Part shown: in pieces, positions 20,401-47,826 of the stretch | Layout of the letters: every line of letters starts with the position of its first letter | How positions within the stretch are numbered: position 1 is the stretch's first letter | Assembly (NCBI RefSeq): GCF_018350175.1 | Contig: NC_058369.1 | Coordinates: 56,172,001-56,236,000 of the forward strand | DNA from: Felis catus | Lineage: Eukaryota | DNA: 64,000 nucleotides | Direction of reading: 5' to 3' | Notes under the pieces: generated by a model | Databases searched by the model: none | What the model was told of the DNA's origin: nothing | Seen by the model: the letters and a program-made list of their open reading frames with translations, nothing else | Made by a program: the position numbers and the translations under genes

Positions 20401-21060
20401 AATCCAAAAACCCTGACTGGCATTTTCCAGAGGTCCCAGCAAGCTTCTCGGGACCCTGAGCAGCCAGCCAGTGAAACCTGAGGACTGCTTATTTGGGGAG
20501 TGTGGGGGCTGCTTCTGGAGAAGGTGGGCTTGGTTACAAGTGTTGTCTTCATTGGAATGAGGGCGTGGAAGGGAAAGCAATGAGTCCAAATTAATCCGTT
20601 TTCCTGTGAACGTCTCCCACCACCCCGTGCCAAGGCGAGGCAGCCTTTGTAATTAACTGACTGGGCCTTTTCTCCCCCCAAACCCAAAATGGGAGCGTGC
20701 GATTTATTTTGTGTGCGAGGTGGTATGAAAATTGCCAGTTGGCAGATGAGGCTGGGATGTTGGTGGAGCTGGGTAAACAGGGCTGAGCTGTCTGTCACCT
20801 CCAGGTCGGAATGGGGAGCTGGCTCCAAAGCAGGGACAGGGGCCGGGGCCACGGAGGTGCTGTGCGTGCCGAGGGCTGAGCAGGTGGCCTTGGGAGGAGA
20901 GCAGAAACTTCTTAGCACTGTGGATGGGAGTAGAGGCACTACAGTTCTGAAATCAAACCCTTCTCCTCGTCCTACCCTGTGTCACCACGGACCAGACACT
21001 GAACTCTCCAAGCGTCAGAGTCCACGTGGGTTCAGCGGTCTTTACTGAGTGCCTGCCGTA

Positions 21061-21608
21061 TGTCGTGGACCCGAGTTCATCTGCCTGATGCGCATAAAGA
21101 CCATCACTGAGACACGGGGTATAAAGCAAAGCAAGAGTTTATTCCAGAGGCAGGAGGGCGAGCCTCACATCCACCTCCCTAGAGGAGGAGAGTCAGGGGT
21201 ACTTAGTGGCGAAGGAAAAAGGTCAGGGTACATAGTTGCGGCTGCTAGCCTTTTGTTTACCCTTTTCAGTCCCCAGGGTCTTTTGATCCGTCCTCATTCT
21301 TGTGGGTATTGGGACCACGACCCAGCCGCGGCTGTTACTTCCTGCTGAGGTGGGGTGGAGACTGGGTTTAGACAAGGGGAAACTTTGGGGTGGAAAGGAA
21401 TGTCCTGCATTACTGGGATTTTTGTACTTTGGTCAATAGTTCCTGTACCATGTTGTGTCTAGGGTTTTAGGGGTACTGGAGAACAACAGGTAGCATGTTG
21501 TACTCCTGGCTTGATTCCCTTGGACCAGTTCCCCCGCGTCGGAGGTTCAGGTCCGGCAGAGGCTCACTGGTCTGAGCCGGGTCCCTTTCGACCTCCTCCC
21601 TGCTGACA
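21061..21608 (-). mobile_element. ERV1-type LTR
   Basis: TG...CA boundaries (tgtcgtggacccgagttc ... tgctgaca), TTTATT at ~21138 (minus-strand polyA signal), adjacent to an integrase C-terminus. No clear TSD. Confidence 0.55.
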
Positions 21609-21619
21609 GGTGTAGGGAA

Positions 21620-22900
21620 CCTGTGGATTCTTGTCATTCACGTGTGAATCCACGGCTCAATTCCCTGTAGTCTCGGGGGAGTGGGGGGGTCAACGGCACC
21701 TCGCAGGGTCTGACGTGTCCAGTGAGGCTGGAGCTGGTCCTCTGGGCTCTCGCTCTTCAGGTCTTTAGTGACATCTTTAGTGACACCTTTGGATGTCACC
21801 AAGGGATTCAGGCAGTGTGAAGACACATCTGTGAGGTACATCAGCCTGCCGGAAGCAAACGCAGGCCCTGGATGTACCTGATAGTATCCAAATCGCTGGT
21901 GGGAGCCCCGCCAGCGACTCCTAGGTCACGAAAGAACATAGAAAGTCTTGCATATGACATTCCACAGGGGCTTAAACCAAGCCCTCTTCTAGGGACCACT
22001 CTTTCCCAAAGCAGGGCAGATGGCATGGGTTGTTCCCAAGTGAAGTGGGTTTCTTGGCAGAGCTTTGCCAAAGTTCATTTTTTTCCCTTTTTCCACTCTC
22101 TCGGTGTCTCCAGGAAGCGTGTGATTTCCACTGAATGCCCAAGGCCTTGGACGCTGTGGTTGTCACTCCATTGTCACTCTGAATTATTAGCGGCAGTCCA
22201 AACCTAGAAATGATCTCGCTTCAAAGCATTTTGACCACTCCCGAGGCCTTCTCTGAACAGCAGGGAGGAACCTCAACCCCGTTGATAAAGGTGTCTGCAG
22301 ATACAAGGAAACCCCGAGAATTTCCCATTGTTCTTTGCATTCTGGGAAAGGCTGCGTGCCGGTCTTCCCCAGGTTTGGGGCGTCTCAGTTGTATACCCTT
22401 GAGAACTTGTGGGCACCCAGTCTTAGGGTTGTTTTTAGCACAAGCGTTGCCTTTTGTAGCATTTCGCTGAAATCGGAGCCCGCAGTATACTTCTGGATCC
22501 ACTGGAGAGGGGCATCTTTCCCATAACGGGTGCTTCGAGGAATGTGGCTAATTATTTCTTTCATCAGATGCTCTAGGGTAAGGATTCCTTCTATTTCCAG
22601 CCGGTGTCAAGGCCAGCACGGTGTCCAAACCCCCACTCCTTACTTAACTCCTCTTTGGTCCTCCAAGGGACGTTGGGGTTGATATGTAGTTAAGTCTATC
22701 TTTGGCACGAGAGCTCTTCCAGAGGGTCTTGGAGTCTTTGACGGGCTGCCAGCATGGTTCCCTTGGGCAGTCGGTCCACTTTGTGGCGTCTTCCGCAGCG
22801 GACGGTAGCTGATGGGTCACCACTGCACCCAGCTCTTGCTTGTCTTTGACCCGTGACACTGTCCCCATCCGTGAACACGTCCACGTCTGGATGCTCCGAT
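21620..22900 (-). pseudogene. pol: ERV pol remnant (RNase H plus integrase)
   Basis: Frameshifted motifs in order on minus: VFTDGDS..GQRQARAG (RNase H), ACAKNNP..PGED..LVSADTF..EKASGVVK (IN Zn finger/core), QWKSHASW..SGK, LAKLCQETHFTW..GLSP, PEDQLQPHW..LQGIEPWIH (IN C-terminus). Confidence 0.9.
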
Positions 22901-25366
22901 GGCAGCTTGTCCAGTCGGGATGGCTGCGATCAGCTTGTTCAGCTCTCCGTGTGTCTCTGGTGATCTTTCTGAGTGGCCCTTAGATCACCGGGCCACTTTT
23001 CTCTCACGTGTACCTCGGCGGGTCTGGCTTCGGTTTGCGGGGCTTCAGGGAAAAGCAGTGTTCGTTCTCAGGGCTTCCAGTCAACACGGTGGGAGAAAAC
23101 TGGAAACCTTAGTTTGGAGAGTCAGGGTCAGATATTCAAGGAAACCAGAAGAAGTCAGGACCCAGCCCAGGTGTATAGACAACCAACGAAGCCTCCAAGA
23201 CGGCTCATCGGAACCATGATCTTACATTTTCACAGGTGTGTTACTGGAACAATCTCTCTCTCTGAAACCACCCTCATCTCCGCCAAAGAGAGCCAGATTA
23301 GGACACGTTTGTTTGTGAAATTGTCCAGTTGAAGCTGGGCCTGTTTACACAAGCGCCATCACAACGGTGATTGGTCATATAGGTGTTGGGTTTTTTCAAT
23401 CTGCTTCGCTGGAACTTTTCGTAAGGAATGTCAGATTGAACTTTTAACAGCCTTGTCAGGCTAAAGAAGCCAAGCCAAATCCTGGCCATCAGCCTTTGCC
23501 TGCCATACCTATAGGTGTGGGTGGCTCCCTCTCTTCTCGAGATCCCCCAAATACCCTGAGGTTCCTGCACCTGCCAGGAAGTGACGACCTTCCTTATTCA
23601 CCTGGTAGGGCTGCTGGAAACTTTGTAAGCAAGGTACGAGGCCAGTTTTCCAAGGGGCTTCATTGGCTCGGCAAAGTCAACCTTAATTAGTTCCTTAAAG
23701 CTCTCTGATTGTAGCTGAGTCTAGGCATATCTCCCTCAACTATGACATTCCAGTCAAAGCCTTGGCAACATGACCAATGTTTCCAGTGGCGTCCTGTTGC
23801 AAGGAGAACGGATTCGTATCGAACTTCTGCAAATAAATACACTGCCGTGAAAGTAGGAGAATACTCCCTGAGAGTTTTGAATTCTGGTGGTACCAGGTAG
23901 GGAGAAAGGGATAAATGTTTCCTATCTGTGTATGAAGAAATTATTTACCAAACGTCTGCCAAATGTCATAGGCAGACTTAAATTTAGAAGAGCAAACATT
24001 AGAGGACCAGCAATGTTTACACAAGGGTCTGTTTGAAAGCAGTTTCCCCATTAGTTCTGGGAATTCTTACTAAGCTTAGCTTTATGATCCTGAAGGGATC
24101 AGAGAGCTGTATTTGTCAATGCAGTGCAGCTGGCAAGGAGATTCTGTGACACACGCTACTTCAGTGGTTAGTAGTACAAGCGATGACGCTATACCAGGAC
24201 ATATCAAACCCTTGGGAATCTTATAAAATCTCTAGGACACTTAGAGCAATCACCCATACAACAAAGCCTAAGAAGGTTCCTCATCGCTTATTTGATGATG
24301 CCTCCCATGTCATTTGACACACCAGGGAATAAGCCTAATTCGTCAAAAAGACTTCCATTCACAAGCTGGGTTTTTGGAAGTTGGTGAAATACCAGAAGGT
24401 TTCAAAACACGTGCCTAAATAGGATTACAGATCACTACAAAACAGGATACTTATTTAGCCGGGATGGCAAGAAGAGATTCTCAAGGTAAATGCAGACAGC
24501 AAGGTAAATGGAGCTGTGAGCAAACCTTAGCTCTCTTAACACTGAGCAGATTCAACTTTCTTAAGTAAGCAAAGACCTAACAGAGACAAGACATAGAAAC
24601 TTTGTTTTTCTAGGCAGCTTAAAGATAAAGAAAAACCTCTGTTGATAATTTAGACCCATCATCTAAGAAGCCTCTGTCACATGAACAGCGAGAAAACCCA
24701 AATTCCAGTCTTATACTGCTGTACTTTGGATATTAAAACTCATTCGTTGCAACAAGATGAATTTTTAAAAAGATATGCAGTCCCTTCTTTCTTCCTCCGT
24801 GTCACCTCCCACGTTGATACATACTTATTTGGACAAGGACATCCAGGGCACTGCATGGGTCTGAGTTCTTGTGGCGGGTGTTGGGATGCGCTGACCAGAA
24901 TGTCCGGCAGGAACCCAGGTCTCCCAGCCATAGCAATGCTGCCTACAGCCTTCGACGCTCAGACATCATCAGGGATCACCGTGACTGTAGGCAGCGGCCT
25001 TGCCAAGGGCATTGCCCGCTGCCCAGGTGGTCACATCCAAAGACGCTTACGAAGAGCCAGCCCCTTCCACCTAAGTTTGGATGCTTCCGAAGGGCAGTCC
25101 AACTTTCGGGACGGCTCAGAGAGTCGGCTAAGGCTTCCGTTGAAGTGTCACTGCTCAACTTCTGCCTGACATCGTTCTCTGCCTCCCCCTTCTCTTCCCC
25201 GGGGGTCGATCGCTGCCCTCATAAACTTGTTTCTTACATGCGAAACTCCAGAATCTCGGCCCCGACCATGCATAGCATTTCTTTCGAAAGATTCCCTTCT
25301 CGCAAACCTTCTGCAATGTTCCCTTTCGCATTCCTTCAGATTTTGTCCTACGTTTTCCCCTCTTTG

Positions 25367-25574
25367 TTTTTTTTTAAATTTTGTTTGAGAGAGAGAGAGA
25401 GAGCACAAGCGGGGGAGGGGGGGAGAGAGAGACACAGAGAGACACACACAGAGAGAATCTCAAGCAGGCTCCACTTGGAGCCTGACAGGGGGCTCAATCC
25501 CACAACTCTGGGATTATGACTTGCGCAGAGGTCAGGAGCGGGATGCTCAACAGACTGAGCCACCCAGGTACCCC
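25367..25574 (-). mobile_element. CanSINE in ERV internal region
   Basis: Head and tail; TSD gttttcc(c)ctcttt. Confidence 0.9.
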
Positions 25575-25983
25575 AAGTTTTCCCTCTTTGAATAACCAGT
25601 CTCACTTTCACTAAATACAGAATTTTTTCCCTTATTTGGTCAAGTAGCCTTAATTACATTTGTTAAAATTATTTACATCTGTCTGTCTGTCCTTCGCTTG
25701 CCCGTAAAGCTTCAGAAGCCATTGGACAGGGCTCTAACGTCTTTCTCTTTTCCATCACATTTTGTGACAGTCACAACGCCAACAGCTGGTTTGACTTACA
25801 GTAAACACAAGCAGAGTGAAACTATCACATTTAATGTTGGCAATTCTAAAGACTTATGTCCATTTTAACTGAACAAACATCGTTACATTAGCTTTCGAAC
25901 CAAATATCTTCCAAGATCACTTGAACTTGAAAGACACCTGGGGTTAGTTTCTATCTTCCTGAGTTTTAGAATGCCCAGTTCTT

Positions 25984-26216
25984 TTTTCTTTTAATTTTTT
26001 TAATGTTTATTTACTTTTGAGAGAGAGAGAGAGACAGACAGAGACAGCGCGTGAATGGGGGAGGATTAGAGAGAGAGGGAGACACAGAATCTCAAGCACG
26101 CTCCAGGCTCTGAGCCCTCAGCACAGAGCCCTACGTGGGGCTCGAACCCACAGACCACAAGATCATGACCTGGGCTGAAGTCAGACGCTTAACCGACCGA
26201 GCCACCCAGGCGCCCC
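25984..26216 (-). mobile_element. CanSINE in ERV internal region
   Basis: TSD tagaa(tg/ca)cccagttctt. Confidence 0.95.
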
Positions 26217-26944
26217 TAGAACACCCAGTTCTTACAAGCACTCGCCTTCAAACCAGCTAAGTAGAGCACTTTTACAAATTAATTTTCACAACCACCACCC
26301 GGAGGTAGAGAAACTATCTCACATTTACAACATACATAGACACACGTACCATTCCACAAACAGGGTGCAAGCAAAACCTTAAAGGCCCAGTTTCCTAATA
26401 TCTCCCTTTTACAAAACACAGCTAAGTGCGAGATGGTCTTACCATTTATGGATCCCTTCATCGGTCGTCTTTCTCAGGAGTCTGATGAATGTTGTGGTGG
26501 AGCAGAGTTGCCAAAACAAACGATGGCCTCGTTTGGGAGACTCCAGCCCATAGGGCTGGATGTGCAGATAGATTGTCCTTTCCCAGTGTCCAACGAGGGC
26601 ATGGCTTGTTGTATTCAAAGATGCCCAAAGCAGTCAAAGCAGCTGACAGACCAATTGAAGCCCAGGTTACCTCCGTGAATTTTCCCCTCCCCACCCCACC
26701 CCCTGCCCCGCTTCAGCTGTGTCCAGTCTGCGGTGTGGCCCATCCGTTGTGGACGGAGGCTCTCAGAAGAGGTCCATAGATGTTCAGCCTGATTCTGGAG
26801 ACACTGCTGGTCCTCTCTTTCCACAGACCAGAGAAAGGTCTCTTTTGTCGCTGAGAAAATAACTCATCTGGCTGGATATTTTAGAAAACTCCTCTGGTGA
26901 CTGTCTGGAAGGTGGCCCAGAGATATTTAGGGTGCATCAAAGCA

Positions 26945-29110
26945 ATGCCGGCCGGATAGAATTAGTTAGGAAGTGTTCTTTCCTGAATTTTTTGGAAGAG
27001 TTTGAGAAGATTGGTGTCAATTCTTCCAATGTTTGGTAGAATTCACCAGTGAGGCTGTCAGATCCGGGGCTTTTTTGGTCAAGTGATCTTCGATTACAGC
27101 CTCAGGCTCCTCCCTAGTTATGTACGAATCTCTTCCGATTTTCTCTTTCTTTGTGATTTAGTCTTGGTAGGTTTTCTAGGTCTAGAAATTGGTCCATTGT
27201 ATCTGGATTCTCCAATTAGCTGGAATACACTTGTTGATAGCACTCTAACCCTTTCTACATCTGTAAGGAGTCAGTGGCAATGCAGTCATTGAGTCTTCTC
27301 TGCCTCCACCGGCAATCCGGCTAGCAGTTTGGTGTTTTCAAAGGACCAGCTCTTGGGTCCATTGATTATCTCTTTCGTTTTTCTAGCCTCTGTTTCATTT
27401 ATCTCCGCTCTAATCTTTATTATGTCCTTCCCTTTGCTACCTTTGGCTTTTTCTAGTTTCTTAAGTTGCACGTCTATGGTGTTGATTTAAGATCTGTCTT
27501 GATGTTTACTGTGAGCGTTTACAGCTATAAATTTCCCCCTCGCCACTGCTTTGTTGTTTTCCAGGAGTTTTGACGCGTTTCATTTCCCTTCACCTCTACG
27601 TATGTTCGCATTCCACTGTGATTTCTTCTTCGACACATTGGTTCTTTGAGAGTGTGTTTTCAGTTTTCACAGCTTTTTAAATTTTCCACTCTTCCTTCTG
27701 TTACCCATTTCTGACTTCATCTTCTTGTGGTTGGAAAAGATACTTTGTATGATATCTATCTTGTAAAATCTACTGAGACTTAACTCGTGACCTAATGCAA
27801 AGACTGTCTCAGAGAAGGTCCCGCGTGCCGTTATTGTTGGGTGGGGTCCCGTGCCCGTCTGTTAGATCTGGCTGGGCTATGGTGTTCTTCAAATCCTCTG
27901 TGTCCTTACTCACCTTCTGTCTGGTTGTCCTGTCCATTATTGACAGTGGGATATGGAAGGCTCCAACGATTATTATAGAACTATTTTTCCCTTCAGTTCT
28001 GTCGATAATGGCCTCTCATTATGTGTGTAAATGTTTATCATCTTTTCTTCTTGCTGTACTGAACCTCTTAATTCATATAAAATGTCCTTCTTTGTCTCTT
28101 GTAACATTTTCTGATTTAACGTCTGTTCTGTCTGGTATTATTACAGCCACTCCACCCTTTCTTTTGGCTGCATTTGCATGGATTATCTTTTTCCTTCCTT
28201 TCACGTTCACCTTTTTTGTGTCTTTGGATCTGAGTCCCTTGTAGGTAACAGAGAGTTGGATCCTATGTTTTTATCCATTTCACTAATCTGTTTAATCTGC
28301 TTACATTTAAAGTCATTACTGATAAGGAAGGAATTCCTTCTGTGGTTTGCTCTTTGTTTTCTATATGCCTTAATTGCTTTCTGTCTCAAATTTTCTGCAT
28401 GACNNNNNNNNNNNNNNNNNNNNNNNNNNNNNNNNNNNNNNNNNNNNNNNNNNNNNNNNNNNNNNNNNNNNNNNNNNNNNNNNNNNNNNNNNNNNNNNNN
28501 NNNNNNNNNNNNNNNNNNNNNNNNNNNNNNNNNNNNNNNNNNNNNNNNNNNNNNNNNNNCTTTTAACATCCTAAAGTTACAACATTGTAGTGTCAATTTA
28601 TACCAGCTTAACCTCAATAACACATGAAAACTCAGCTACTTTAAAGCCCTGACCCCACCTTCTGTCAGTTGTTAATGTCACAAAATCACATCTTTATGCA
28701 TCTTGTGTCCAAAAGCATAGATGAATAATTAGGTTTTTAAATATATCAGTCTCTTAACATAGAGAACAAAAAGTAGAGCTACAGACCAAAGTCATAACAG
28801 TACTAGCGTTCATAATTGTCTGTCTGTTTACCTTTACCGGAGATTATCTCTTCAGAAGGCTTCGAGTTACTTGTTCAGTGCCCTTTCATTTCAACCTGAA
28901 GGACCCCCTTCACTGCAGGGCCGGTCTAGTCATCAGGGCAAGGCTTTCAGCTTTGGTTGATCTGGGAATGTCTTCATTTCTTCCTCATTTTTGAAGGACA
29001 GTTTTCCCAAATGTAGGATTCTTGGTTGACACCTTTTTTCCTTCAGTGCTTTAAACACATCAACCCATGCCTTCTAGCCTCCAAGGTTTCTGATGAGAAA
29101 TCTCCTCACA
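26945..29110 (-). mobile_element. Old L1 fragment (end of ORF1 to ORF2 N-terminal region)
   Basis: Minus-strand KDIIKIRAEINETE..KSWSFE and other L1 antisense signatures. Spans an N-gap. Confidence 0.85.
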
Positions 29111-29494
29111 ACCTTATCAGTGAAAATATGATGAAAAGCAATCTTCTTCTGAGCTTTATAGATGTTAATAATGAGCCTTATCGTGTTGTACACAACACAA
29201 CATTTCCTTATATGTTGTAGCACCATTTTGAGACCAGGAACTGGGTATTTTACGTGTAGACATTATGAGGTCTATATAAGCCAAAATTACAGTTTTCTAA
29301 ACTTGAAGTGAAAGGCCACTGAACCATCTTATAGATTTTGATTTCTAACAAAGTAAATATCAATCTTGAAAAGCCCACACAAACAAACAAAACGCCCATT
29401 GGGGGTCTTTTTGTTGTTGTTGAGTAAAGGGGTTTTGGGAATAAAAAGTGAGGAAACCACTGTGGTCTCAGACATCCCCAGCCATGATCACATA

Positions 29495-29570
29495 ATTGGC
29501 CCATTTCTTGCTGTGCCCTCACATGTGCCTTCACATTGTGAAGTCATGGCAAGACCTGCCTATATAAGAC
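29495..29570 (+). promoter_or_regulatory. Candidate core promoter of the MARK-like gene
   Basis: Reverse CCAAT (ATTGG, 29495), CRE-like TGAAGTCA (29539-29546) and TATATAAG (29561-29568) lie in canonical order ~600 bp upstream of the ORF. Confidence 0.45.
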
Positions 29571-29823
29571 CCTGGCTCGGCTGGGTGTTTGGTCTTTACA
29601 GCCCAGGAAGCTTTGGTGACCTGTCGGCCTTTGACCCTAGCTAGTTTGATTTTGACTTCTCTTTTTTTCATTTTGTTTATTTTTTTATTTTCATTTTTCT
29701 TTTTTCTCTACTCCTTTTCTCTCCCAATTTTTTTTCCCTTTTTCTGTTTTTACTTTTTTCTTTTTTTCTCCTTTTTTAGTTTTTCTTTTTCTCAATTTTT
29801 CTTCGTTTCCTCCCTTCATTTTC

Positions 29824-29861
<38 letters not shown>

Positions 29862-29920
29862 TGTGTGTGTGCGCGTGTGGTTTTTCATTTGTTTTTTTTT
29901 GTGTTAGCGTTTTAGTACAG

Positions 29921-29971
29921 TTAGTATAGTTCATATTGTTAGTATAGTTCATATTGTTAGTATAGTTCATA
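29921..29971 (+). repeat. 18-bp tandem repeat TTAGTATAGTTCATATTG, ~2.8 copies, in a TAG-rich leader
   Basis: Units read directly at 29921, 29939 and 29957. Confidence 0.9.
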
Positions 29972-30168
29972 AGCATAGTATTGTTAGTATTGGCAAATTT
30001 TGTAGGTTGGTATTGTTGGTTAGCATAGTCCGTGTAATTAGCATTATTTAGCGTTAGTATAGTTAGTAGGTCACCATCCTTCAGGGGCGTAAGGCCATTA
30101 CCGCTGGTGAGGAGGACGTCTGTATTTACGAGATCCCCGAGACCACCAGTGAGGGCAGCGTCCCCACG

Positions 30169-31125
30169 ATGAAGCTGACCCAGTACATCCTAACCGGGAA
30201 GCAGTCTGATGTGAAGTTCATCAGGAAAACCCAGGAGGACCCCGCTGGCCTCCAGGGACTTTGTCGTGAAGCCCAGAATATGAAGACCTCAAGTCACCCA
30301 AGTGTTGTCAAGTCACTCAAGGTGATCAACAGGAAGAAATCGTTAGTCCTCCTTTCAAAATATGTAAGCAGAGACAAGCTGTGTGACGATTTTACGCACC
30401 ATGGCCAAGTGACGGAGGAGGTTCCAGACAAATTCTGCCAGCTGTTATCGGTTGTGGAGTACTGCCACCAACAAGGTATGATCGGCGGGGATCAGAAGCT
30501 GGAGACACTGCTTTTTGACAAGAAGCTGAAGGTAAAACACACGGGGGTTGGACTGAGCATCCGGTTTGCTGGCTACAAACTCCACACTTTCTGGGACAGC
30601 CCCCCTTATTCTGCCCCGCGACTCTTCCTGCAGCAAAGGGAGCACACCCCTTCCGCAAACGCTTGGAGCCTGGGGGTGGTTTGGTACTGCTTGGCCACCG
30701 GGTTTGAGCCGTTTGAGGGGGAAGTCTTCTGGGAAGCGGAACGAAATATGGAAAACAGGGAACACAGTGCTTGGATTTTCATGTCCCTGGGGAGTGAAAA
30801 CCTGTGGTACACGTTGACAACCATCCAGCCCAAGATCAGCACACCAACCACAGTCCGCTGCTGGAGCTCCATCGCAACCTGTTCCAGCACAGGCCTGTCC
30901 TCAGAGCAGAGTAGTCTGACCTCCGAAGGGACCAGCATAGGGACCACGATCAGCGGGCCCAGATGCAACTCACCAGCCACAAACTCCGACACCAGCAGTG
31001 AACACAGGCAGCCAGGGAGGATGTCCCTAGAGCCAAAAAATCGGGTTCTCAAAACTCTTGGTAAATTCAAAAAATTATTCAAAAAACACAATAAAATAGA
31101 ACCCCAAAAAACTGCAAATAAATGA
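30169..31125 (+). CDS. Intronless MARK/Smok (sperm motility kinase)-like protein, predicted pseudokinase, 318 aa (may be a pseudogene with an intact ORF)
   Basis: The translation follows AMPK-related/MARK subdomains in order: SDVK (VAIK lysine), LCREAQNMK (alphaC Glu), HPSVVK, YCHQQGMIGGDQKLETLL (HRDLKPENLL), HTGVG (ADFG), KLHTFWDSPPYSAPRLF (KLDTFCGSPPYAAPELF), NAWSLGVVWYCLATGFEPFEG ([21 protein letters not shown]). A Ser/Thr-rich tail follows. AATAAA at 31090 and 31117. Confidence 0.8.
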   Translation: MKLTQYILTGKQSDVKFIRKTQEDPAGLQGLCREAQNMKTSSHPSVVKSLKVINRKKSLVLLSKYVSRDKLCDDFTHHGQVTEEVPDKFCQLLSVVEYCHQQGMIGGDQKLETLLFDKKLKVKHTGVGLSIRFAGYKLHTFWDSPPYSAPRLFLQQREHTPSANAWSLGVVWYCLATGFEPFEGEVFWEAERNMENREHSAWIFMSLGSENLWYTLTTIQPKISTPTTVRCWSSIATCSSTGLSSEQSSLTSEGTSIGTTISGPRCNSPATNSDTSSEHRQPGRMSLEPKNRVLKTLGKFKKLFKKHNKIEPQKTANK

Positions 31126-31169
31126 GAGCCATAAGAGAGCCACGTGTCCGTGCCTTTATTTTATTTTGT

Positions 31170-31364
31170 TTTTTAACTTTAAAGGGACTTAAATGTTTGT
31201 TTTGAAACAGAAGGGACAGTGCGAGTGGGGGAGGGACAGAGAGAGAATCCCAAGTCTACTCTGTGCTATCAGCTCGGAGCCCGACGCGGGGCTCCAGCTC
31301 ACAAAACAGATGGTGGGGACCAAGAGTGGGACGCTTGAGCCACTGAGGCCCACCCAGGAGCCCC
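31170..31364 (-). mobile_element. Degenerate CanSINE, duplicated with the MARK-like unit (copies at ~39115-39295 and ~40180-40376)
   Basis: All three copies share the flank ccccgtccctgc(g/a)ttttaagtgcag, indicating one insertion copied by segmental duplication. Confidence 0.8.
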
Positions 31365-31419
31365 GTCCCTGCGTTTTAAGTGCAGGGAACGATGCTGAGC
31401 TCCAGGAAGCCCGGGGACA

Positions 31420-31536
31420 TGGCACAGGAGATTGGCCAGGGCGACGGGTGGGACCAGAACAGCTTCCCAGGCTGGAGGAGTGTCAGTGGGATAGTGACCT
31501 GCTGGATTTGGAGTTGTAGGAAGCACAAGGTGGAGG
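31420..31536 (+). pseudogene. MARK-like UBA-region fragment (copy A), interrupted by the ERV
   Basis: GWDQNSF..SVSGIVTCWIWSCRKHKVE resembles a degenerate MARK UBA segment. Near-identical to 39350-39473. Confidence 0.6.
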
Positions 31537-32241
31537 TGGTGAAGTGTTGGAGTGATGGGGGGTTCGTGGGTCTGGAGCCGATGGCCAAGGAAGAATTCGT
31601 GAAGAAGTCTTTGGTGCAAAAAGGTGATTTTATTAAAGCACGGGGACAGGTCCATGGGCAGGGAGAGCTGCACTGGTGTCGTGACGGTTAGCTCATTATA
31701 TACCCTCAGGTTGGGAGGGGGTTAGGGAGACAGCCAGAATTCCTTGGAGACTTACTCCTCAAGGTTCCAGGACCTTGAGGGGCTAGCTGTGGCCAGGAAA
31801 ATGCCATTTCTTGCCGTTTAATGAAACCTCAGCCATAAGACCCTTTAGATGGATCTGGGCAGGCCATAAGCGTGGAGGATGATTGCCAGCATATATGTTG
31901 CGGGGGTTGAGATGAAGTAGATTTGCAGGGTCCTTGAGGTTGGGATCATGTGAAGCTAAGGTTCTCTTTTTCCCCCACCAAAATGTCATCCTGTCAGGCA
32001 GCTGAGCTCCCACAGGGAGGCCACTCTGCCTGTTTCAAGGACTTGTCAATGGGCTGCAGGCAGTAAGGGAATTTACGTTTTCATTTGCCTTAGTTTCCCA
32101 CATGACCACGGCAAGCATTTAAACCCCTTTCCTTTGTTCTTGGGGAGCCAGGAGTGTCCAAGGACTAACACACACATTCCACCTGGGAGGGACGGTGCCA
32201 GCCTGGATTTTGCCCTGAGCCTGCCTTATGCTCCCTCATCA
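31537..32241 (-). mobile_element. 3' LTR of the ERV
   Basis: On the minus strand it is preceded by the purine tract AGGGGGCAGGGGGA. It is homologous to 37707-38030, and TTTATT (AATAAA on minus) is at ~31628. Confidence 0.85.
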
Positions 32242-32379
32242 TATCCCCCTGCCCCCTGAGCAGTTTTGGCCCTGGAATCTTTAGGGTTGCTGCAGGTGGA
32301 AGGTCTCATCTTCTGTAGCTTCTTCCTGCTGAGCAAGGGCGTAGAGTTGTCCCTACCTATCTCGGTCAATATGGGTCAG

Positions 32380-32880
32380 TCAGGGAACATAGAGGGGAGT
32401 TATAAAAGGCAGAGGCAGCTGAATCCACCGTGGGCAATGTGTATGAACCTCCTTGAGTAAAAAGGATCGTGTGTTGGCTTGAAGTGATTGCAGTGATGGA
32501 GTCTTGGTGCCAGGCAGAGAGACATGGGAGAAAAAGCAGAACAGAATGAGAACCACTAGAAAGATCAGCCCAAATGGAAGTCCTTTGGTAGCTGACGCAC
32601 CTCCTCCAGTCCAGGAGTTTAACCAATCATTACAGGAAAGGGATTGTTTAAAGTGCCAAGTTGGAGTACTCATGTCAGTGAGAAATCCAGAAATGTTTCT
32701 GTGGTCATCTGGAATGTACACACAGCATTTTGTTTTGATGAGAGTATAAGTTACACCTTGTGCAGCAGTTAGCACATATGCCGTTCTATTTTCTAGAGCT
32801 GTTTTCTGCATTCGAGTTATGTTCGTATTTAACACTATAATGGTATGTTGAGAGTCATTTAAGTCCTTAACTGTGTAACA
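32380..32880 (-). pseudogene. env: ERV env TM remnant
   Basis: LENRTAYVLTAAQGVTYTLIKTKCCVYIPD is a degenerate immunosuppressive domain plus CX6CC region. A hydrophobic TM segment (GLIFLVVLILFCFF) follows. Most of SU is missing. Confidence 0.85.
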
Positions 32881-35360
32881 AGTGATGTATGTACAGCCAT
32901 CCTGTAGACTCTGTTTGGTTCAGTAAGCAATCAGCTAATTAATCAGAGGTACTCTTCTGGAACCGAGAAAAACAGGGGTGACTGGTTAGAGCAAATCACA
33001 AACTTAGTGTTTCCCAGTGCTGCCAGTGAGATATTAGACGTCGGGCGGGAAGCATCCTCAGAGGAGAGTGGGAAGAGGCAGCAGGAATGAGGTTGGTCTT
33101 TCTGATTTGTACCTCAGATGTCTGTGGTGGTCCTTTTGAATGGCCCATTGTAAGAAGGACTTGTTAGTAGAACTTGGGGAAAGAGAATGAAAAAGAAAGT
33201 TGCCATCATCATAAGAGGTGTGAACAAGTGTTCCACAGGTTCACAGGAAGGAGAAGGCACATTCGTGTGCTCATGGATTTCCTGCGAAAGGGGGTACAGG
33301 TTTCATTTAGATACGGGAGCCCGTGAAAAATGCCCCTGTAACTTGACCGCAGCCCTTTTATTTTGGAGTCAAATCCCCTGTTGTATTCGACTTTCCATCC
33401 TTTGAATAAACCAGGTCTTTTGGGTTTCTATGGGGTAGGTTTCTAGTAACTGTCAGATCAGGTTTAGGAGGGACATGTTTGCATGCTTAGAGATTTATGA
33501 ATTAACCCAGCCTCAAGTGACGGATGAATAAACCACTAGCCTCTTTGTCTATTGATAGGTGAATCCATCCCATCTTCCAGTCGTTTAAATCATATACCCA
33601 TGGGGTTATTATTCCCGCAGAATAACAAGCAAGAAGATTGTCCATACCTGTGCCTCTGTGACAAAGTTTACCTCGAGTTGTCTAGCTTAGGCAAACAACA
33701 AACTTTTAAAGACAATCATAACTAGGATTTACCATCCCTAACGATGTGTTCTTGAAACATAGTTTGTCTCTGTAAAAACCCTCATTTCCAGGGATGGCCA
33801 AATCGAGACTAATTCACTCGTAGGACAAGTCCAGCTTTAACAACCTTGGCCCAATTGTTTCCATAAGTTCAGCAAGAATAGTGATGGATCATAAGGATCT
33901 TTTCAAGTCTGCTCTGCCGGAACCTTTTATCAGGAATCTCCAGACTGAACTTTTTGTAGCCTCTCCGGGCCAGAAGCCAAGCCAGTTACTTCCGTCAGAC
34001 AGGCCTGCAATATCTGTGGAATTGGGCGAATTCCTCTTCACGAGGTCCCCGAGATATCCTGAGGTTCCTGCACCTGCCAGGAAGTGACATTCTTGACTCA
34101 CCTGGGGAGGCTACTGGGAACTCTGGAAGCAAGGTATCGGGTCAACATTTCAAGGGGCTGTATGGCTCCATGTTTCCCAAAGTCAACCTTGGTCCCTTGG
34201 AGCTACACGCTCACACCTCTGAGTCTGTGCATGGCTCTCAAATAGGACGTCCCAGTCAAAGCCTTGGTAAAAATAACCAGTATTTCCAATGGTGTCCTGT
34301 TCCAAGGACTTACGCAAATGAGTACGATTGTCACGAGAGAAAGGATACTCACTGGGAGGGTGTGAATGTCAGAGGGTTTAGGTAGAGAGAAAAGATAAAC
34401 GCTTCCGCTCACAAAGGAATGCTTGATGACATTTCCGTAGATCACAGCTATCTTAAGAGGAAGTTTCCTTCACCAGAAAGAGCAAACAGAGAACCAGCAG
34501 TGTCTCTGACAAGAGTCCCAAAACTCTGATCTTCCTCAGTTCGTTCAGTCCCACGTTCCCAACTCTTGTTCAGTTTGATTGCGGCTTTTTAATTCTGAAT
34601 TCTGGACATTCTTACCCGTTTTCATGTTCATCTTAAAGACATCAAATACCCGTGTTTGTCCACAGAGCCCTTTTTCCGAATCGAGAGGTCCTTAAGGATG
34701 CAGCTGACGAGGAAACTCAGTTATTTCTGCGACACATAACACTTCAATAGTCAGACTATCAAGTGAGGACCTTATGCCAAAACACTGAAGACTTTAGGAT
34801 TTGAGTGTAGAGTGGGGGTAGTTGCAACATTTACCCGAGCAGTACAGCCCAAGGTTTACCATCATTTGATAGAGCTTTTCTGAGTAACTTAACATACCAA
34901 ATGAAAAGGCCTACCTGGTCAGAAAGACTTCATTTACAATTGAAATCTTGGGAAAGTCTGCTAAAACCTTAGAAGGTTATGAAGCCTGTCCCAAATAGGA
35001 TTGCAGGTCATTACAAACCTTACAACTTTATTCAACCAAGGTTGAAGGTGGCAATGAGAGACTCTACAGGCAAACGTGTAGCATCATAGAGCTGTTAGCA
35101 AAGCCTAGCTCCTTTACCAAGGACACGTTTTCACTTGAGGTCATCAAAGACCTGATCTTTAGAAAGCTTTAGAAAGCTTTGGTTCTCCTGACAGACAACT
35201 GAGAAAAAGAACCTTGTTTCCAAAGCAGACAAACCTTATGTTTAGGAATCAGTGCTTGAGCGCTCGGTCCTATTTGGAAAAAAAAAAACCTAGATGTCCA
35301 ATGAACTTCATCTTCTTCGTCATGCAGACTTGAAAGAAAACTTTAAAGTTTCAGGTTACT

Positions 35361-35583
35361 GAGGCGCCTGGGTGTCTCAGTGGGTTGAGCATCGGACTTC
35401 GGCTCAGGGCATGACCTCCCGGTCTGTGAGTTCGAGCCTCACGTCAGGCTCTGTGCTGACAGCTTGGAGCCCGGAGCCTGCTTCGGACTCTGTGTCTCCC
35501 TCTCTCTCTAGCCCTCTCCCGTTTGCTCTCTTTCAAAAATGCATAAATGTTAAAAAAAAAAAAAACAGCAACAATGAAACCTG
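35361..35583 (+). mobile_element. CanSINE in ERV internal region
   Basis: Standard body; TSD aaagtttca(g/t)gtta. Confidence 0.9.
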
Positions 35584-35849
35584 AAAGTTTCATGTTAGCA
35601 AAGACTTTGAAAGCTATCCTAACCTGTGACAACTTTGAACCAGGCACAACTAACCATTATTTTAAGTCATCTTTGTGCTAACAAATTGCAACCGAGATAA
35701 AATGAGCTTCTCTGACCTTTGGTAAACCTTGGTAGAAAAAACGTTTTCTATTTAATGCTGATAAGTCTAAAGACAGGTCCGCCAAACTTAGGTGAGTTTC
35801 AACACTGGATTGTTTCACCTGCGTCCACTTAAAAAAAGAAAATCCGTTT

Positions 35850-36660
35850 GTTCTCCCGGGATGCCAGTGGGGGGGAGGGGGATCTGGGGCGGGTGGTCCC
35901 AGGGGTGCTCTGGGCTCCTTGACCTGGAGGGTAGGAGAAGGAGCCGGCGGTGCCCGAGGCACTGAGGATGGGATAGGAACCGGGTACTCAGGCCACCCCC
36001 AAGGTGGTGCAGAAACAGGAGGAGGGGGAGGGGAAGGCAGAAGAGGTGAGGTGCCAGCAGAAGGCAGACAAGGACAATTTCCTGGTTCCAACCTCATCAG
36101 CTCTGTCAGAGGCACAGATGCCATGTTTTCTGTTCCCCCAAAGTGGAAATGGGCGATCTGGGTCAGGCCAGAGAAGAGGGGGAAACAAATGGAGTTTTAG
36201 CAGCTGCTCGGGAATATTCCTTCAAGTCCCCGTCCCAAGGAAGACTAAGCACACGTGGCTCTAATCATAGCTGTGAAGCCGGGAAATAAATGAGGGAGAA
36301 GCCCTCACATCTAGTAGGAGGAGGAACAGAGAGAAAGAGTCCGCGTCCCCTTTGTCAGGGATGGCCTGTGTTTCCTCCCCTAACCTGGGTTCTCTTAGGA
36401 GGAAGGAGGCCTGTTGAGACAATTATCATCCGGTATATCAGGAGGGAGTTTCCTGACCTGGTTCCTGAGCACGTTCCCCAAGGGGCCCCAGGGTCCGGGT
36501 AGCATGAAGGCCTGGAGGTGGGTACCTCTGTCTGTTTACTAAGGCCACACAGTGTTACAGGATCAGTCCTCTCTGCATTTTGCAAGCCCAGTTGTTGCCA
36601 GTGGGTTACAAAGGCATCCCAAGGCAGAATCTTTGGAGACTGAGGAGAAGCCCCCGTGCT
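35850..36660 (-). pseudogene. gag: ERV gag (matrix plus proline-rich region) remnant
   Basis: Frameshifted G.SSVSKDSALGCLC / HWQQLG resembles the ERV1 matrix N-terminus. A Pro-rich p12-like stretch follows. Confidence 0.6.
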
Positions 36661-37706
36661 CCTCCCAGAGAGAAAAGTCGAAAGGAAAGAGAGAGAGGCT
36701 CCGTTGCCGCTGACCATGCCCCCGACTCCTGGGTGGCACCCCATGCACACGGTATGTCAGAGCTTCCTGGTGTCAACGCTCCCTGAGGCGTCCCTCGAAT
36801 AAAATCTCCATGACTGCCAACTGGCCGACTGAGGGCTCTTGAAGGAGGGATGCTAGCGTCCCCCCACTTCCCCGTTGCATTCTAGACTGCAGACGGGTGC
36901 CTGGCGAATGGACCGAATACCTTACCCGGAAGGCCGTGCCTGAAAAGGGCCCTGATGGTCATGTCCTGATTCCCTGGTCTTTGAAGAGCATGCCACAGAG
37001 GCCAGGCTCCAGGTTCTTGAAGAACCTGCCGTTTGTAACCCACGGAAAACACAACACTAGAAAAGTTTCACAAGGGGGAATCAATTGCCCAGTTTTGTAA
37101 TTTCAGTAGTAGTTAGTAGAGGACATTGACAGAAAGCAGCACAGGTGGAAATCCATCATGGTCCAAGTGACAGTCCCACCCATAGAGTCTTCACAAGCAA
37201 CTCCCCTAGGGAACGGTCCCCAGTTGGGTTTTAATTCACTCAGGTACTGGTTCCCGCTGTCTCCCAGTGGAGCTGTTGCGGCCAGAGGTGGCTAGTCCAG
37301 AGTTGTGGAGGGGATCGCCTTAGACCCCTGACGAGGAAACCTCACTTGGGAGTCTTAGGCTTCGTGGCTTAGGTGGCTGTCCCATGCCCTACGCAGACAA
37401 CGTTGTCTAAGGACAGGAGTGAAGACAGGACATCAAGTTTCTGGATCTCATTACCATCCCGGCCAGGGTACCAACTTGCAGCCAAAGGGCAGGCGCTCTC
37501 CTCCTCACAGAGTGGCCGGGGCTAGAGGGTGGCAGCCTGCTCAATCGACAGGAGAGTGTTCCAGTAAGACCACACTCCCCGAAAAGCCCCTGAAATGAGA
37601 GTAAAGGAGGAAAAGAGAAAAGTAGAAGCTTGCAGGATGATTGCCAGCTTCTATCTTGGGGGACTTGAGAGAAAGGAAGCAGACTTCCTCGAAGGAAGGA
37701 TCCTCG

Positions 37707-38030
37707 AGGATCCTCGAGGTTGGGATCATGTGAAGCTAAGGTTCTCTTTTGTCCCCCACCAAAATGTCATCCTCGGGGCAGCTGAGCTCCCACAGGGAGG
37801 CCACTCTGCCTGTTTCAAGGACTTGTCAACGGGCTGTAGGCAGTAAGGGGATTTCTTTTCCACTGGCCTTACTTTCCACACATCACCATGGCAAGCACTT
37901 AAACCCCTTTCCTTTCTTCTTGGGTAGCCAGGACTGTCTGGGGTTATCAAACATATTCCAACCAGGGGGGCGGGAGGGGTGCAGTACCCGCCTGTATTTT
38001 GCCCTCAGCCTACCTTATGCTCCGTCATCA
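37707..38030 (-). mobile_element. 5' LTR of the ERV, truncated (U3 portion only)
   Basis: Aligns with 31927-32241. The remaining ~390 bp of LTR is absent, and AGGATCCTCG is duplicated at the breakpoint. Confidence 0.85.
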
Positions 38031-38582: not shown

Positions 38583-39349
38583 CCTTAATAAATATCATCA
38601 AATAACACCATTTGAAACCTACACTGAAGGAAGACAGGAAGCTGCACCGAAGGAAGCAGCTGAGCCACAGTCCATGTCTTCATTTTGTTCTTTCACTTTA
38701 CCTGGGTTTCATTGTATTTGATTATTCTTTTTATCTGTTTATATTGGTTTAATCCATGCCCATTGTAGTTTACAAAGTGAAAAGACAAGTACCTTTGTAT
38801 GCAATATACAGACACAGCGTCGCACAGTGGGGCCCAGGGGCGGGGCAGAGGAGACCACTTTCCCTGGGAACAGAAGTTCTAATGCCAGGAATGGATTTGG
38901 GTAGAAGGCTGGGCAGCCAGCCATGCCAGCCCCTGCTTAGGTCAATTCCCATTTCCTGGGTCTCCCCTCTCCCCGCAACTCCTAAAAAAGAGCCCCAGAG
39001 ATAACACCAAGGACGGGATCCTATCCCATTGGGCGAGTGCCCACGTCAAGAGAAGAAATATACACCCCTGAGCACGTAGCACGTGGGAAGGGATACCGTT
39101 TCAAAAACTTAAATAAATATTTACTTAGAGAGGGGCAGTGCTAGTGGGGGAGGGACAGAGGGAGAATCCCAAGTCTACTCTGTGCTATCAGCTCGGAGCC
39201 CGATGCGGGGCTCCAGCTCACAAAACTCTGAGATGGCGACCTGAGCAAGACCAAGAGTGGGACGCTTGAGCCACTGAGGCCCACCCAGGTGCCCCGTCCC
39301 TGCGTTTTAAGTGCAGGGAACGATGCTGAGCTCCAGGAAGCCCGGGGAC

Positions 39350-40119
39350 ATGGCACAGGAGATTGGCCAGGGCGACGGGTGGGACCAGATCCAGAACAGC
39401 TTCCCAGGCTGGAGGAGTGTCGGCGGGATAGTGACCTGCTGGATTTGGAGTTGTAGGAAGCACAAGGTGGAGGGCCACACCATCATGGTGAGGCCCTTCC
39501 TTTTTGCTGACTCCAGGAGCCACAGCCCTTCCCCAATCCAAGTTCCAGCCATCTGGGGCGGGGGGGTGGGGGTCTTCTGGGAGGCGCCAGGACAAATACC
39601 GAGCGGGGAATGCACCTATGTTCTAGTATTTGCGACCCTCAAATGAGAAAACCTTTGGAGGAAATTGATGAGCGTCCACCCAAGCAAGAGAGCAGAGTTC
39701 AAAGCCGTTATGAAGGACCGATGGGAAAATATAGGGCAGGAGGAAGGACTCAGTCCTTATGTGGAGCCAGGCCATGACACCGAGGACCCCCCCGGCTGCC
39801 TCAGGTAATGACAGAGCAGAAGGCAAAACGTCCAGGCAGTCTCCCACCAGCCTAGAGCCCAGCCCTCTCCTGGAGCCTCATTCCAGCCTTCTGCAGCTCC
39901 AGCATATTCTCAAAGCGGAGCCTTTTGACTTCTGTAGGAACCAGCATCATGAGAACCATTAGCCCGGCCAGGTGTGACCCATTCACCACAGACGCAGACA
40001 CGCACGGCGAATGCTGGGAGCCAGGGAGCACGTCCCTAGAGCCAGAAAACCGCTGTGTAGAAACTGCATACAGATTGAAAAAAAAGAGTTTTCCAAACAA
40101 TAAAATAAAACCCAAATGA
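39350..40119 (+). pseudogene. Scrambled MARK-like fragments: UBA region, then kinase subdomains X-XI plus linker, then tail
   Basis: WDQIQNSF..IVTCWIWS..GHTIMVRPF, then from 39572 VFWEAPGQIPSG..K*ENLWRKLMSVHPSKRAEFKAVMKDRWENIGQEEGLSPYVEP with an internal TGA at 39644. The tail GTSIMRTISPARC..SLEPENR..NKIKPK* is paralogous to the end of the 318-aa ORF. Confidence 0.75.
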
Positions 40120-40970
40120 GAGAGCCAAGGCTCCGTGCCTCCATTTTATTTTGTTTTGTTTTGTTTCATTTTCGAAGTTTAAAGCAACTTCCATAAATAC
40201 TTGTTTGAAAGAGAGGGACAGTGCGAGTGCTGGAGGGGCAGAGAGAGAACCCAAGCAGCCTCTGTGCTATCAGCTCAGAGCCCGATGTGGGGCTCCAACT
40301 CACAAAACCGTGAGATCACGACCTGAGCAAAAGCACGTGTGGGATGCCGAGGGACGGAGGCCCACCCAGGTTCCCCGTCCCTGCATTTTAAGTGCAGCGA
40401 AAGATGCTGAGCTCCAGGAAGCCCCGGGACAGGTGCAGGACACTGGCCAGGAGTCGGACCCAAACCCACGCGGGTGTGTGTGATGCAACGTGGGTGCACC
40501 GTGTGGACACAGTGGCCCGGGCAAGCAGATACGGTCCTGTGGACAACGGGAATGTGCACACCCCTCAGAGTTCTCTGCAGTGGATTCCCATCAAGAGGGT
40601 ATCTCGTGTCCGCGGCCTACAAGAGGAGAGGCCACCCGAGCTGCGGGTCTGTCCTTCTGTCCCCAGCTGGGTGAAGCTTTAGAGACTGGGCTGCTTTTCC
40701 TGAGGCATCTCTCTCCTCCCCTGCTCTTGTGTTTTTTGTATGGGGAGGAGGGAGGCCGTTATTCCAGATCTTGTAATGAAGTCGATGCCGCAGAAAGGTG
40801 TATCACAGATACTCTGTTTGCATCCTCGCCGCACAGAATTGGGGCCGTGCATGTCCCGGTCGGAGGAGTGTGGAGTGATGTAGTCCTAGGGAATTCACCA
40901 GAACAACTAAATGGAAAAATCACCTAAGGGACTTGTTGTGGGAGTATTGCAGGGCAGAAATGCAGACTGT

Positions 40971-46800: not shown

Positions 46801-47826
46801 GTCTGGATCTTCTTTTTTTGTTTATATTTATTTTCTTGACTTTATATGCAAGTTAGCGTATAGTGCAACAATATAGATTCCTTAATGCCCCTTACACATT
46901 TAGCCCATCCCCCCTCCCACAACCCCTCTAGTAACCCTCTGTTTGTTCTCCAGGTGTAAGAGTCTCTTATGTTTTGTCTCTCTCCCTGTATTTATATTAT
47001 TTTTGCTTCCCTTCCCTCTGTTTTGTATCTGAAAGTCCTCATAGGAGTGAAGTTATAGGAATTTGTCTTTCTCTGACTGACTAACTTCACTTAGCATAAT
47101 ACCCTCTAGTTCCATCCACGTAGTTGCAAATGGCAAGATTTCATTCTTTTTGATTGCCGAGTAAGACTCCATTGTATCTATATACCACATCTTTATCCAT
47201 TCATCCAGAGATGGACATTTGGGCTCTTTCCGTACATTGGCTATTGTCGACAGTGCTGCTGTAAACATCGACGTGCATGTGTCCCTTCAGAACAGCATAC
47301 CTGTATCCCTTGGATAAATATCTAGTAGTGCAATGGCTGGGTCATAGGGTAGTTCTATTTTTAATTTTTTGAGGAACCTCCATACTGTTTTCCAGAGTGG
47401 CTGCACCAACTTGCATTGCCACCAACAATGCAAAAGAGATCCTCTTTCTCTGCATCCTCGCCAACATCTGTCATTGCCTGAGTTGTTAAGGTTAGCCATT
47501 CTGACAGGTATGAGGTATTCTCTCATTGTGGTTTTGATTTGTATTCCCCTGATGATAAGTGACGTTGAGCATTTTTCCATGTGTCGGTTGGCCATCTGGA
47601 TGTCTTCTTTGGAGAAGTGTCTATTCATGTCTTTTGCCCATTTCTTCACTGGATTGTTTGATTTTTGGGTGTTGAGTTGGATAAGTTCTTTATAGGTTTT
47701 GGATACTAACCCTTTATCTGATATGTCATTTGCAAATATCTTCTCGCATTCTGTTGGTTGCCTTTAAGTCTTGCCGATTGTTTCTTTGGCTGTGCAAAAT
47801 TTTCCTTTTGATGAGGCCCCAGTAGT

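Follow-up and report, generated by a model that had tools for sequence, protein, structure and literature searches.

An intact, multi-copy, testis-expressed MARK2-like retrogene of the domestic cat with a predicted catalytically dead kinase-fold product

A 64,000-nucleotide stretch of the Felis catus genome (contig NC_058369.1, positions 56,172,001 to 56,236,000; hereafter the window) contains an open reading frame that resembles a protein kinase, and in which several motifs of an active kinase have been replaced. The locus raises the question of whether such a frame is the remnant of a dead gene or a gene in use, and what its product might do if it cannot catalyze. A preliminary description, made from the letters alone, had taken the frame to be the open member of a decayed paralog cluster and had likened it to the Smok kinases of the mouse, with a possible part in sperm motility or transmission distortion.

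The reading frame, its motifs and its surroundings

The frame runs from an ATG to a TGA at 30169–31125 (+) and encodes 318 amino acids without interruption, as first described. Pfam recognized a Pkinase domain (E = 4.8e-28), and the closest sequences of solved structure were those of MARK3, MARK1, MARK2 and MARK4 (E about 1e-43, residues 2–221, 37–39% identity), bearing out the MARK-type identity; MARK1–4 were also the nearest solved folds to a model of the ORF by Foldseek (TM about 0.6). The similarity to MARK stops at residue 221. The pseudokinase domain (residues 1–221; 30169–30831, +) extends from beta2 to alphaH, its translated part being without beta1, the Gly loop and alphaI. It is followed by a Ser/Thr-rich tail (residues 222–318; 30832–31122, +), which is of low confidence in the model and ends in a predicted basic helix (about residues 288–307) and the residues NKIEP. 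The UBA and KA1 domains that follow an active kinase domain are absent; Pfam saw the kinase domain only.

The window copy keeps K16 (the beta3 Lys), E34 (alphaC), D108 and K110. Its DFG has become GVG (126–128), its HRD is GGD (106–108), its APE is APR (149–151) and the catalytic-loop Asn is T113; further losses, absent from the preliminary description, are the alphaF Asp (N164) and the subdomain XI Arg, which is gone. The residue-by-residue check of these motifs agreed with the earlier residue-level observation of GVG, T113, GGD and APR, which was therefore right. The same was true of the degenerate Gly loop placed 5' of the ATG: its homolog, SEGSVP, belongs to a 33-codon relic of the ancestral N-terminus that is itself open (30070–30168, +; 99 nt, in frame and untranslated). 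Alignment to MARK3 revealed single-codon deletions only, in keeping with the claim that all indels were in frame. The statement that the Lys and the catalytic Asp remain held for the window copy (K16, D108) and failed for many relatives, in which one or both are replaced.

The ATG of the ORF is the first one past a TATA-like box, TATATAA (29561–29567, +), a candidate promoter proposed from sequence only. Between them lies a candidate 5' leader of about 600 nt (29568–30168, +) that is U-rich, carries (TG)n and TAG repeats, and is without ATG. A candidate poly(A) signal, AATAAA (31117–31122, +), stands directly before the stop codon, with a second AATAAA at 31090–31095, and one read contig (X11) stops at 31128. 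The gene occupies the 3' end of a core duplicated block of about 12 kb (19438–31689, +) that is 97–99% identical in the fetched C2 copies. At the C-terminus, residues 288–314 (31030–31110) form the basic predicted helix leading into NKI[EQ]P. In clouded leopard and cheetah, variants end at the P itself, a bat MARK2-like protein closes a similar stretch with NKVKP, and the stretch is missing from some leopard cat and lion models; the helix with NKI[EQ]P is a possible targeting motif.

We found no second kinase domain in the window. Its single other paralog region is a decayed fragment at 39323–40120 (+), made up of a post-kinase remnant, presumably UBA-like, a kinase-domain end (39620–39790) and a copy of the tail that is 69% identical and carries one TGA; a short duplicate of part of this fragment lies near 31.2–31.5 kb. 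A provirus-like old remnant 3' of the gene (31868–38030) has direct repeats at 31868–32241 and 37626–38030 that are 79% alike, and encloses an ORF without a Pfam match (32380–32919, −) that we take to be env-like. The block shared by most C2 copies ends near 31.7–31.9 kb, and these copies lack the remnant. A LINE-1 fragment with reverse-transcriptase ORF remnants (−) lies at 47017–49410.

Structure prediction depended on the alignment supplied. A model from 11 family rows, without MARK rows, reached a pLDDT of 33, and one from 91 rows, mostly MARK/SIK, gave a kinase fold with a pLDDT of 64 and a TM of about 0.6 to the MARKs. Because the kinase fold emerged only with the MARK-rich alignment, the result is partly circular and shows compatibility only. 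Between cat and meerkat, 51 of 57 core hydrophobic sites were kept vs 43.9 in neutral simulation (P = 0.007); the values for cat vs hyena (43 of 48, P = 0.07, marginal) and for cat vs a 176-residue relative, P0057 (38 of 47, P = 0.35), were not significant. The product may fold. Look-alikes in the ESM Atlas were generic kinase clusters only, with STRAD clusters among them (score 0.96, rank 7), which we treat as a lead only.

Copies, relatives and origin

The cat genome contains 13 full-length copies, as given by a protein search (83/83 candidates scored) and a DNA search (17/17). Six lie on the + strand of C2 (56.20–56.48 Mb), six on its − strand (57.30–57.61 Mb) and one on a small contig, C43. 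The 12 C2 copies form two inverted arms, with ISY1 between the arms and RPN1 just past the right arm, a neighborhood that we take to be the human 3q21 block, away from the mouse t-complex region. Amino acid identity among the copies is 89–100%, and DNA identity is 98–100% in 11 of the 13. Every full-length copy is open through codon 312; a one-base gain in an A-run of four copies changes the last residues only. With 13 of 13 copies intact, and one broken fragment in the window, the picture of a decayed cluster and a lone survivor had to be abandoned. A frameshift occurs in one of the 15 cat-cluster members listed (P0035). The copy at 57.606 Mb shares less than 3 kb of upstream sequence, unlike most fetched copies, which share the block of about 12 kb. 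Pfam detected no co-amplified gene in 80 long ORFs (the window and one full unit) and 120 flank ORFs, a scan that short exons would escape; its matches there were this kinase, LINE reverse transcriptase, RPN1 and one below-cutoff EBV-NA1.

Two features of the layout deserve mention in their own right. The arms flank about 0.8 Mb (C2:56.49–57.30 Mb) holding ISY1 and a broken sister of the family, a setting prone to inversion polymorphism. On the small contig, C43:385100–434108 carries the window unit in rearranged form, at about 96% identity, and its gene copy (L012) has Y at the D108 site; this stretch may represent either a locus of its own or a haplotype that was never placed.

Relatives annotated as MARK- or SIK-like occur in domestic cat, leopard cat, Geoffroy's cat, cheetah, lion, tiger, leopard, jaguar and clouded leopard, with many copies in several felids. 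Meerkat and spotted hyena also have relatives, and the family is not restricted to felids as had been supposed. The site of the DFG Asp is G in all unspliced feliform members aligned, including a lion model with A-G. Cat, jaguar, meerkat and hyena also lack the APE Glu, and have T or Q for the catalytic-loop Asn. At the K16 site we found T or M in Panthera and Neofelis, Q in meerkat and T in hyena; the D108 site is Y in the aligned cheetah, Panthera, Neofelis, Leopardus and Prionailurus sequences, as it is in L012. Loss of at least one of the VAIK Lys, HRD Asp and DFG Asp is one mark of a pseudokinase, beside a kept kinase fold and no measurable phosphotransfer, and the family shows this loss. 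Because the DFG Asp is lost in all members aligned and the beta3 Lys or HRD Asp in many relatives, the whole family is predicted to be dead; judged by these motifs, catalysis by its members appears very unlikely. Three members of 176 residues (P0057, P0208, P0209) still have RRDLKLEN but no longer DFG, a halfway stage in motif loss. In clouded leopard, many near-identical copies (P0045–P0050) lie on a 244-Mb record and one more on a 170-Mb record; their presence on two records suggests a second, independent expansion on another chromosome.

In a tree of 32 rows the family formed one clade (100/100) with a stem of 1.07 changes per site. It joined a broken sister (96/76) within mammalian MARK2-like kinases (94/84), the last two supports not being starred. 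This sister (L014; C2:57244392–57245160, at 57.244 Mb) keeps GQGNFAKV, HRDLKPEN and DFG and carries frameshifts and stops. It shares more than 1 kb of 5' flank with the gene, and DNA identity between the ORF and the sister is only 64%. It was thus the copy with canonical motifs that was lost, and the motif-dead one that persisted and was amplified. No intact active MARK2-like retro-kinase was found in the cat genome among 110 of 525 candidates scored. Further broken kinase retro-copies lie about 3 Mb from the array (C2:60311507–60312184 and C2:60884957–60885648). We propose that an old MARK2-like retrogene beside RPN1 would have duplicated, and that its canonical copy would later have decayed at C2:57.244 Mb. 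The other copy would have lost its Mg-binding residues before the cat-hyena-mongoose split, and then the UBA region, gaining a fused tail and expanding in felids.

Frame maintenance, rate of change and expression

About 60 variant alleles occur among the 13 ORFs, and not one disabling change was found in codons 1–312. For a neutral expectation we used a nonsense rate of 4% and 0.03–0.115 indels per substitution (the flanks had 23 per 315 and 16 per 130, hardly any of triplet length). On this basis 4.3–9.4 disablers were expected vs none seen (P = 0.014 to 0.0001), and survival of the ORFs by chance is unlikely. A frameshifting 10-nt deletion is present in four copies, in the untranslated 99-nt relic. 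About 10 nonsense hits were expected along the path from cat to meerkat alone; intact protein frames occur in cheetah, jaguar, clouded leopard and meerkat, although database proteins are biased towards intact frames. The start codons tell a similar story. Pantherines use an upstream Met and have the downstream Met deleted in frame, whereas in the cat the upstream site is ATC and the downstream Met is used; cheetah and Geoffroy's cat have both. The cat ATC, at 30076–30078, is the site of the start Met (MLQGRK) in cheetah, Panthera, Neofelis and Leopardus proteins. The leader of about 600 nt is free of ATG in 11 of 13 copies, vs a mean of 3.3–5.7 after shuffling (P = 0.001–0.02, a post hoc test). 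The preliminary description had proposed stops or frameshifts in close felid orthologs with dN/dS near 1, together with a missing testis transcript or peptide, as evidence against its reading; felid relatives are mostly intact, and a transcript exists.

Rates of change were consistent with fast evolution of the protein. Alleles among the 13 paralogs comprised 51 nonsynonymous and 9 synonymous differences (a crude count at multi-hit codons), and a binomial test gave p = 0.09 without transition bias and p = 0.002–0.03 with transition and CpG bias. Fitted to 7 of the 13 copies, a codon model yielded omega of 2.04–2.19 (2dL = 4.3–5.9 vs omega = 1, p = 0.02–0.04), in a test whose tree assumption is broken by gene conversion. 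Compared with the window copy, L013 had dN of 5.0%, dS of 1.7% and flank divergence of 1.5% (Fisher p = 2e-8, nonsynonymous vs flank), and L012 looked neutral (dN 3.9%, dS 2.1%, flank 3.6%; p = 0.84). With five outgroups, the cat protein showed 64–79 unique residue changes vs 21–25 in the broken sister (about threefold, p ≤ 2e-5), a comparison in which the sister may have been constrained for part of the time. Between ORF and sister, omega was 0.36–0.60, and dS of 0.8–1.25 vs a flank distance of 0.27 is a three- to fourfold excess without explanation. Nonsynonymous changes leaned from AT to GC (20:16, vs 128:207 in the flank), and synonymous ones stood at 2:7. GC-biased conversion was judged unlikely as the sole cause, because synonymous changes run from GC to AT (7:2). 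CpG retention in the ORF (0.45 vs 0.19 in the sister) was dropped as evidence, the whole amplicon having values of 0.37–0.54. A metagenome scan for felid DNA around the relatives returned 164 pattern matches, none confirmed. Overall, the codon data make positive selection on the family plausible and lend it modest support; relaxed constraint with frame maintenance also fits most of the rate data.

Testis RNA-seq from the supplements of PMC8611880 covered 5 adult, 2 late-juvenile and 3 early-juvenile samples. LOC101089681 (XP_006929096) had a baseMean of 4,917 and was 75 times higher in adult than in early-juvenile testis (padj 4e-60), and LOC105260366 (XP_019680706) had a baseMean of 5,380 and was 88 times higher (padj 7e-48). 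Both were 7.6–8.0 times higher in adults than in late juveniles, and 10–11 times higher in late than in early juveniles. TSSK6 (baseMean 1,692) followed a similar course (190-fold adult vs early, 9.2-fold adult vs late, 20.6-fold late vs early), and SPO11 differed only twofold between adults and juveniles. From the TSSK6-like pattern in bulk tissue we infer expression at the post-meiotic, spermatid stage. The current XP_006929096 corresponds to one copy (L007) and the current XP_019680706 to five (L002–L006); the window copy is XP_044909143.1, one base from the XP_019680706 copies. Because the testis reads were mapped to an older reference, the counts pool copies. The pooled baseMean of the two loci is about 10,300 vs 1,700 for TSSK6, values that are not length-normalized. 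Read mapping in 4 of 24 runs, for which the tissue is not given, found in two of them 12 and 5 reads per 12.9 million records each, which is near background. Neither locus name had a main-text match in the literature. Both gene ids were absent from the supplements of PMC7846758 and PMC11394312, which are differential tables or nearly empty and hence uninformative, and the accessible parts of PMC11216403 and PMC4676127 do not mention the gene.

The frame had been called intronless, which is true of the genomic frame as a single exon and is qualified by the RefSeq model of the same copy (XP_044909143.1, P0038), in which 30532–30633 is spliced out. This GT..AG segment of 102 nt (+) encodes residues 122–155, from GVG to APR, that is, the activation segment. 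For all 13 cat copies, the RefSeq models that match them exactly skip it, one type having an unspliced model as well, and every one of the 13 has the same donor and acceptor. The same segment is spliced out in leopard cat, Geoffroy's cat and cheetah models. Lion and tiger models have this or other internal splices, several being only 125–257 residues long; a candidate second donor at 30476 matches the junction of the short ones. Jaguar models and most of those of clouded leopard are unspliced. In the 4 of 24 runs mapped, with almost no depth, we saw no splice joints at the gene; two read contigs (X11 and X2) are unspliced and may be DNA.

Proposed function and likeness to known systems

Taken together, the data support a fast-evolving, frame-kept, MARK-derived, motif-dead and testis-expressed gene, as first suggested. 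We consider it probable that this intact, multi-copy MARK2-like retrogene makes a predicted dead kinase-fold product which, likely as a decoy or scaffold, works by binding in post-meiotic germ cells or sperm. The protein, if translated as its maintained frame suggests, would act without catalysis through its MARK-type surfaces and its tail; amplification would raise its dose, and diversifying selection likely pushes its sequence.

An unlikely alternative, raised as a candidate role in the preliminary description, is that the gene is a party to genetic conflict, acting as responder, driver or suppressor of sperm transmission distortion in the manner of Smok-Tcr, with copy number and sequence caught in an arms race. 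Its ampliconic layout, omega above 1 and expression that climbs with spermatid numbers would suit this role, as would the long U-rich leader and the roughly 0.8 Mb between inverted arms, which could invert. Smok kinases are MARK-related, and by this origin the cat family has its parent superfamily of MARK-like kinases in common with them. According to the accessible parts of PMC3305403, PMC7861394 and PMC9863905, the Smok-Tcr kinase acts as a dominant negative and stays within haploid cells. However, the dead state of the cat family is fixed across Feliformia and is not an allele segregating against an active form. The search of 110 of 525 scored candidates gave no intact active MARK2-like retro-kinase, and the one sister at the locus that has canonical motifs is broken, which leaves a dominant negative of the Tcr kind with no active paralog, among those found, to work against. 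Sperm competition or ordinary divergence of reproductive proteins would leave the same signature. With the locus beside ISY1 and RPN1 and the dead state family-wide, a specific link to Smok or to drive was not supported.

Rather less plausible is a neutrally amplified, transcribed pseudogene, with permissive testis transcription, repeat-rich recombination and a frame kept by luck. Its appeal lies in the erosion of all catalytic motifs, the missing beta1, Gly loop and alphaI, and paralogs without purifying selection among them (omega of 1 or more, L012 being neutral-like), together with the poor stand-alone model, variable splicing and truncated models. It has to contend, however, with 13 of 13 intact frames (P of 0.014 or less), the roughly 10 nonsense hits expected on the cat-meerkat path, and intact proteins in cheetah, jaguar, clouded leopard and meerkat, allowing for the preference of databases for intact frames. 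Reciprocal retention of start codons, a protein that changes faster than the broken sister and an abundant transcript also tell against it. We give little credence to the idea that a spliced short form does the work (284 residues without the activation segment, or an N-lobe form of 125–151 residues), the kinase fold being incidental and the N-lobe, tail or basic helix the active part. The spliced RefSeq models with identical donor and acceptor in all 13 cat copies, the same splice in leopard cat, Geoffroy's cat and cheetah models, and the short lion and tiger isoforms speak for such a form; yet unspliced proteins of jaguar, clouded leopard, cheetah, meerkat and hyena carry the segment in frame and well preserved, and contigs X11 and X2, which may be DNA, are unspliced. 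Hardly credible, finally, is an RNA role of the locus as a small-RNA source or a sponge against MARK-family transcripts: a high testis transcript level, inverted arms and DNA similarity to the sister would fit, but frame retention and the excess of amino-acid-changing variants point to a protein, and even the nearest sister has only 64% DNA identity.

Returning to the binding protein that we favor, we compared the family with known systems. Canonical MARK1–4/PAR-1 kinases are multi-exon, active enzymes with UBA and KA1 domains. They are the nearest solved sequences and folds (37–39% identity, TM about 0.6), yet the cat family has neither their multi-exon build and activity motifs nor UBA and KA1. 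It is closer to the mammalian MARK2-like retro-kinases of rhino, bats, mole, whale and buffalo (RefSeq automatic names), with which it groups in the tree (94/84, not starred) and shares a MARK2-type N-terminus, and several of which are also multi-copy. Most of these retro-kinases keep HRD and DFG, whereas the cat family is long-stemmed (1.07 changes per site, 100/100), motif-dead and without the UBA region, and has a fused tail. STRAD pseudokinases are old, conserved and single-copy per paralog. STRADalpha, a scaffold of the AMPK/MARK pathway, resembles the cat product as a predicted dead kinase fold; unlike it, the cat family is lineage-restricted, amplified and fast-evolving. Mouse Slx/Sly and the cat X and Y amplicons likewise have near-identical tandem and inverted copies, testis expression and rapid change, but the cat family is autosomal by contig context and encodes a pseudokinase. 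Smok is multi-gene and variable in copy number (bioRxiv 10.1101/2021.12.22.473661) and is expressed late in spermatogenesis (PMC9863905), according to the accessible parts of these sources; the cat family is likewise a MARK-derived retro-copy, multi-gene and testis-expressed. Wild-type Smoks, however, are described as phosphorylating, whereas every cat-family member examined has lost the DFG Asp. The cat locus lies in an ISY1/RPN1 neighborhood, and no active partner paralog was found for it among the candidates scored. The resemblance to Smok would be at most an analogy, the two being set apart by catalysis and neighborhood and not by a sequence comparison.

In the literature searched, with subscription papers outside our reach, we came across no account of the family, of its dead motifs or of its amplification; what is already known consists of automatic RefSeq models ('MARK3-like') and rows in the testis table of PMC8611880. 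Its transcript is one of the abundant ones that puberty induces in the cat testis, yet the gene is labelled only 'MARK3-like'. An autosomal amplicon in which a predicted dead kinase outlived its canonical-motif sister and changes faster than a pseudogene is unusual, and bears on whether Smok-like control of sperm, or drive, arose more than once in mammals. The boldest reading, to which we assign a small chance, is that a device like Smok-Tcr arose independently from a MARK2 retrogene in cats, hyenas and mongooses: a dead kinase that spermatids retain and whose dose would bias sperm performance, with the felid autosomal amplicon in ongoing transmission conflict. If this were true, segregation would be distorted by the number of copies and the type of paralog, which would also have a share in felid sperm defects or in the sterility of hybrid males. 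With variation in copy number and between paralogs to type, association and transmission could be tested in existing cat pedigrees and hybrid breeds, and the gene is a testable candidate for poor sperm morphology and hybrid male sterility in felids.
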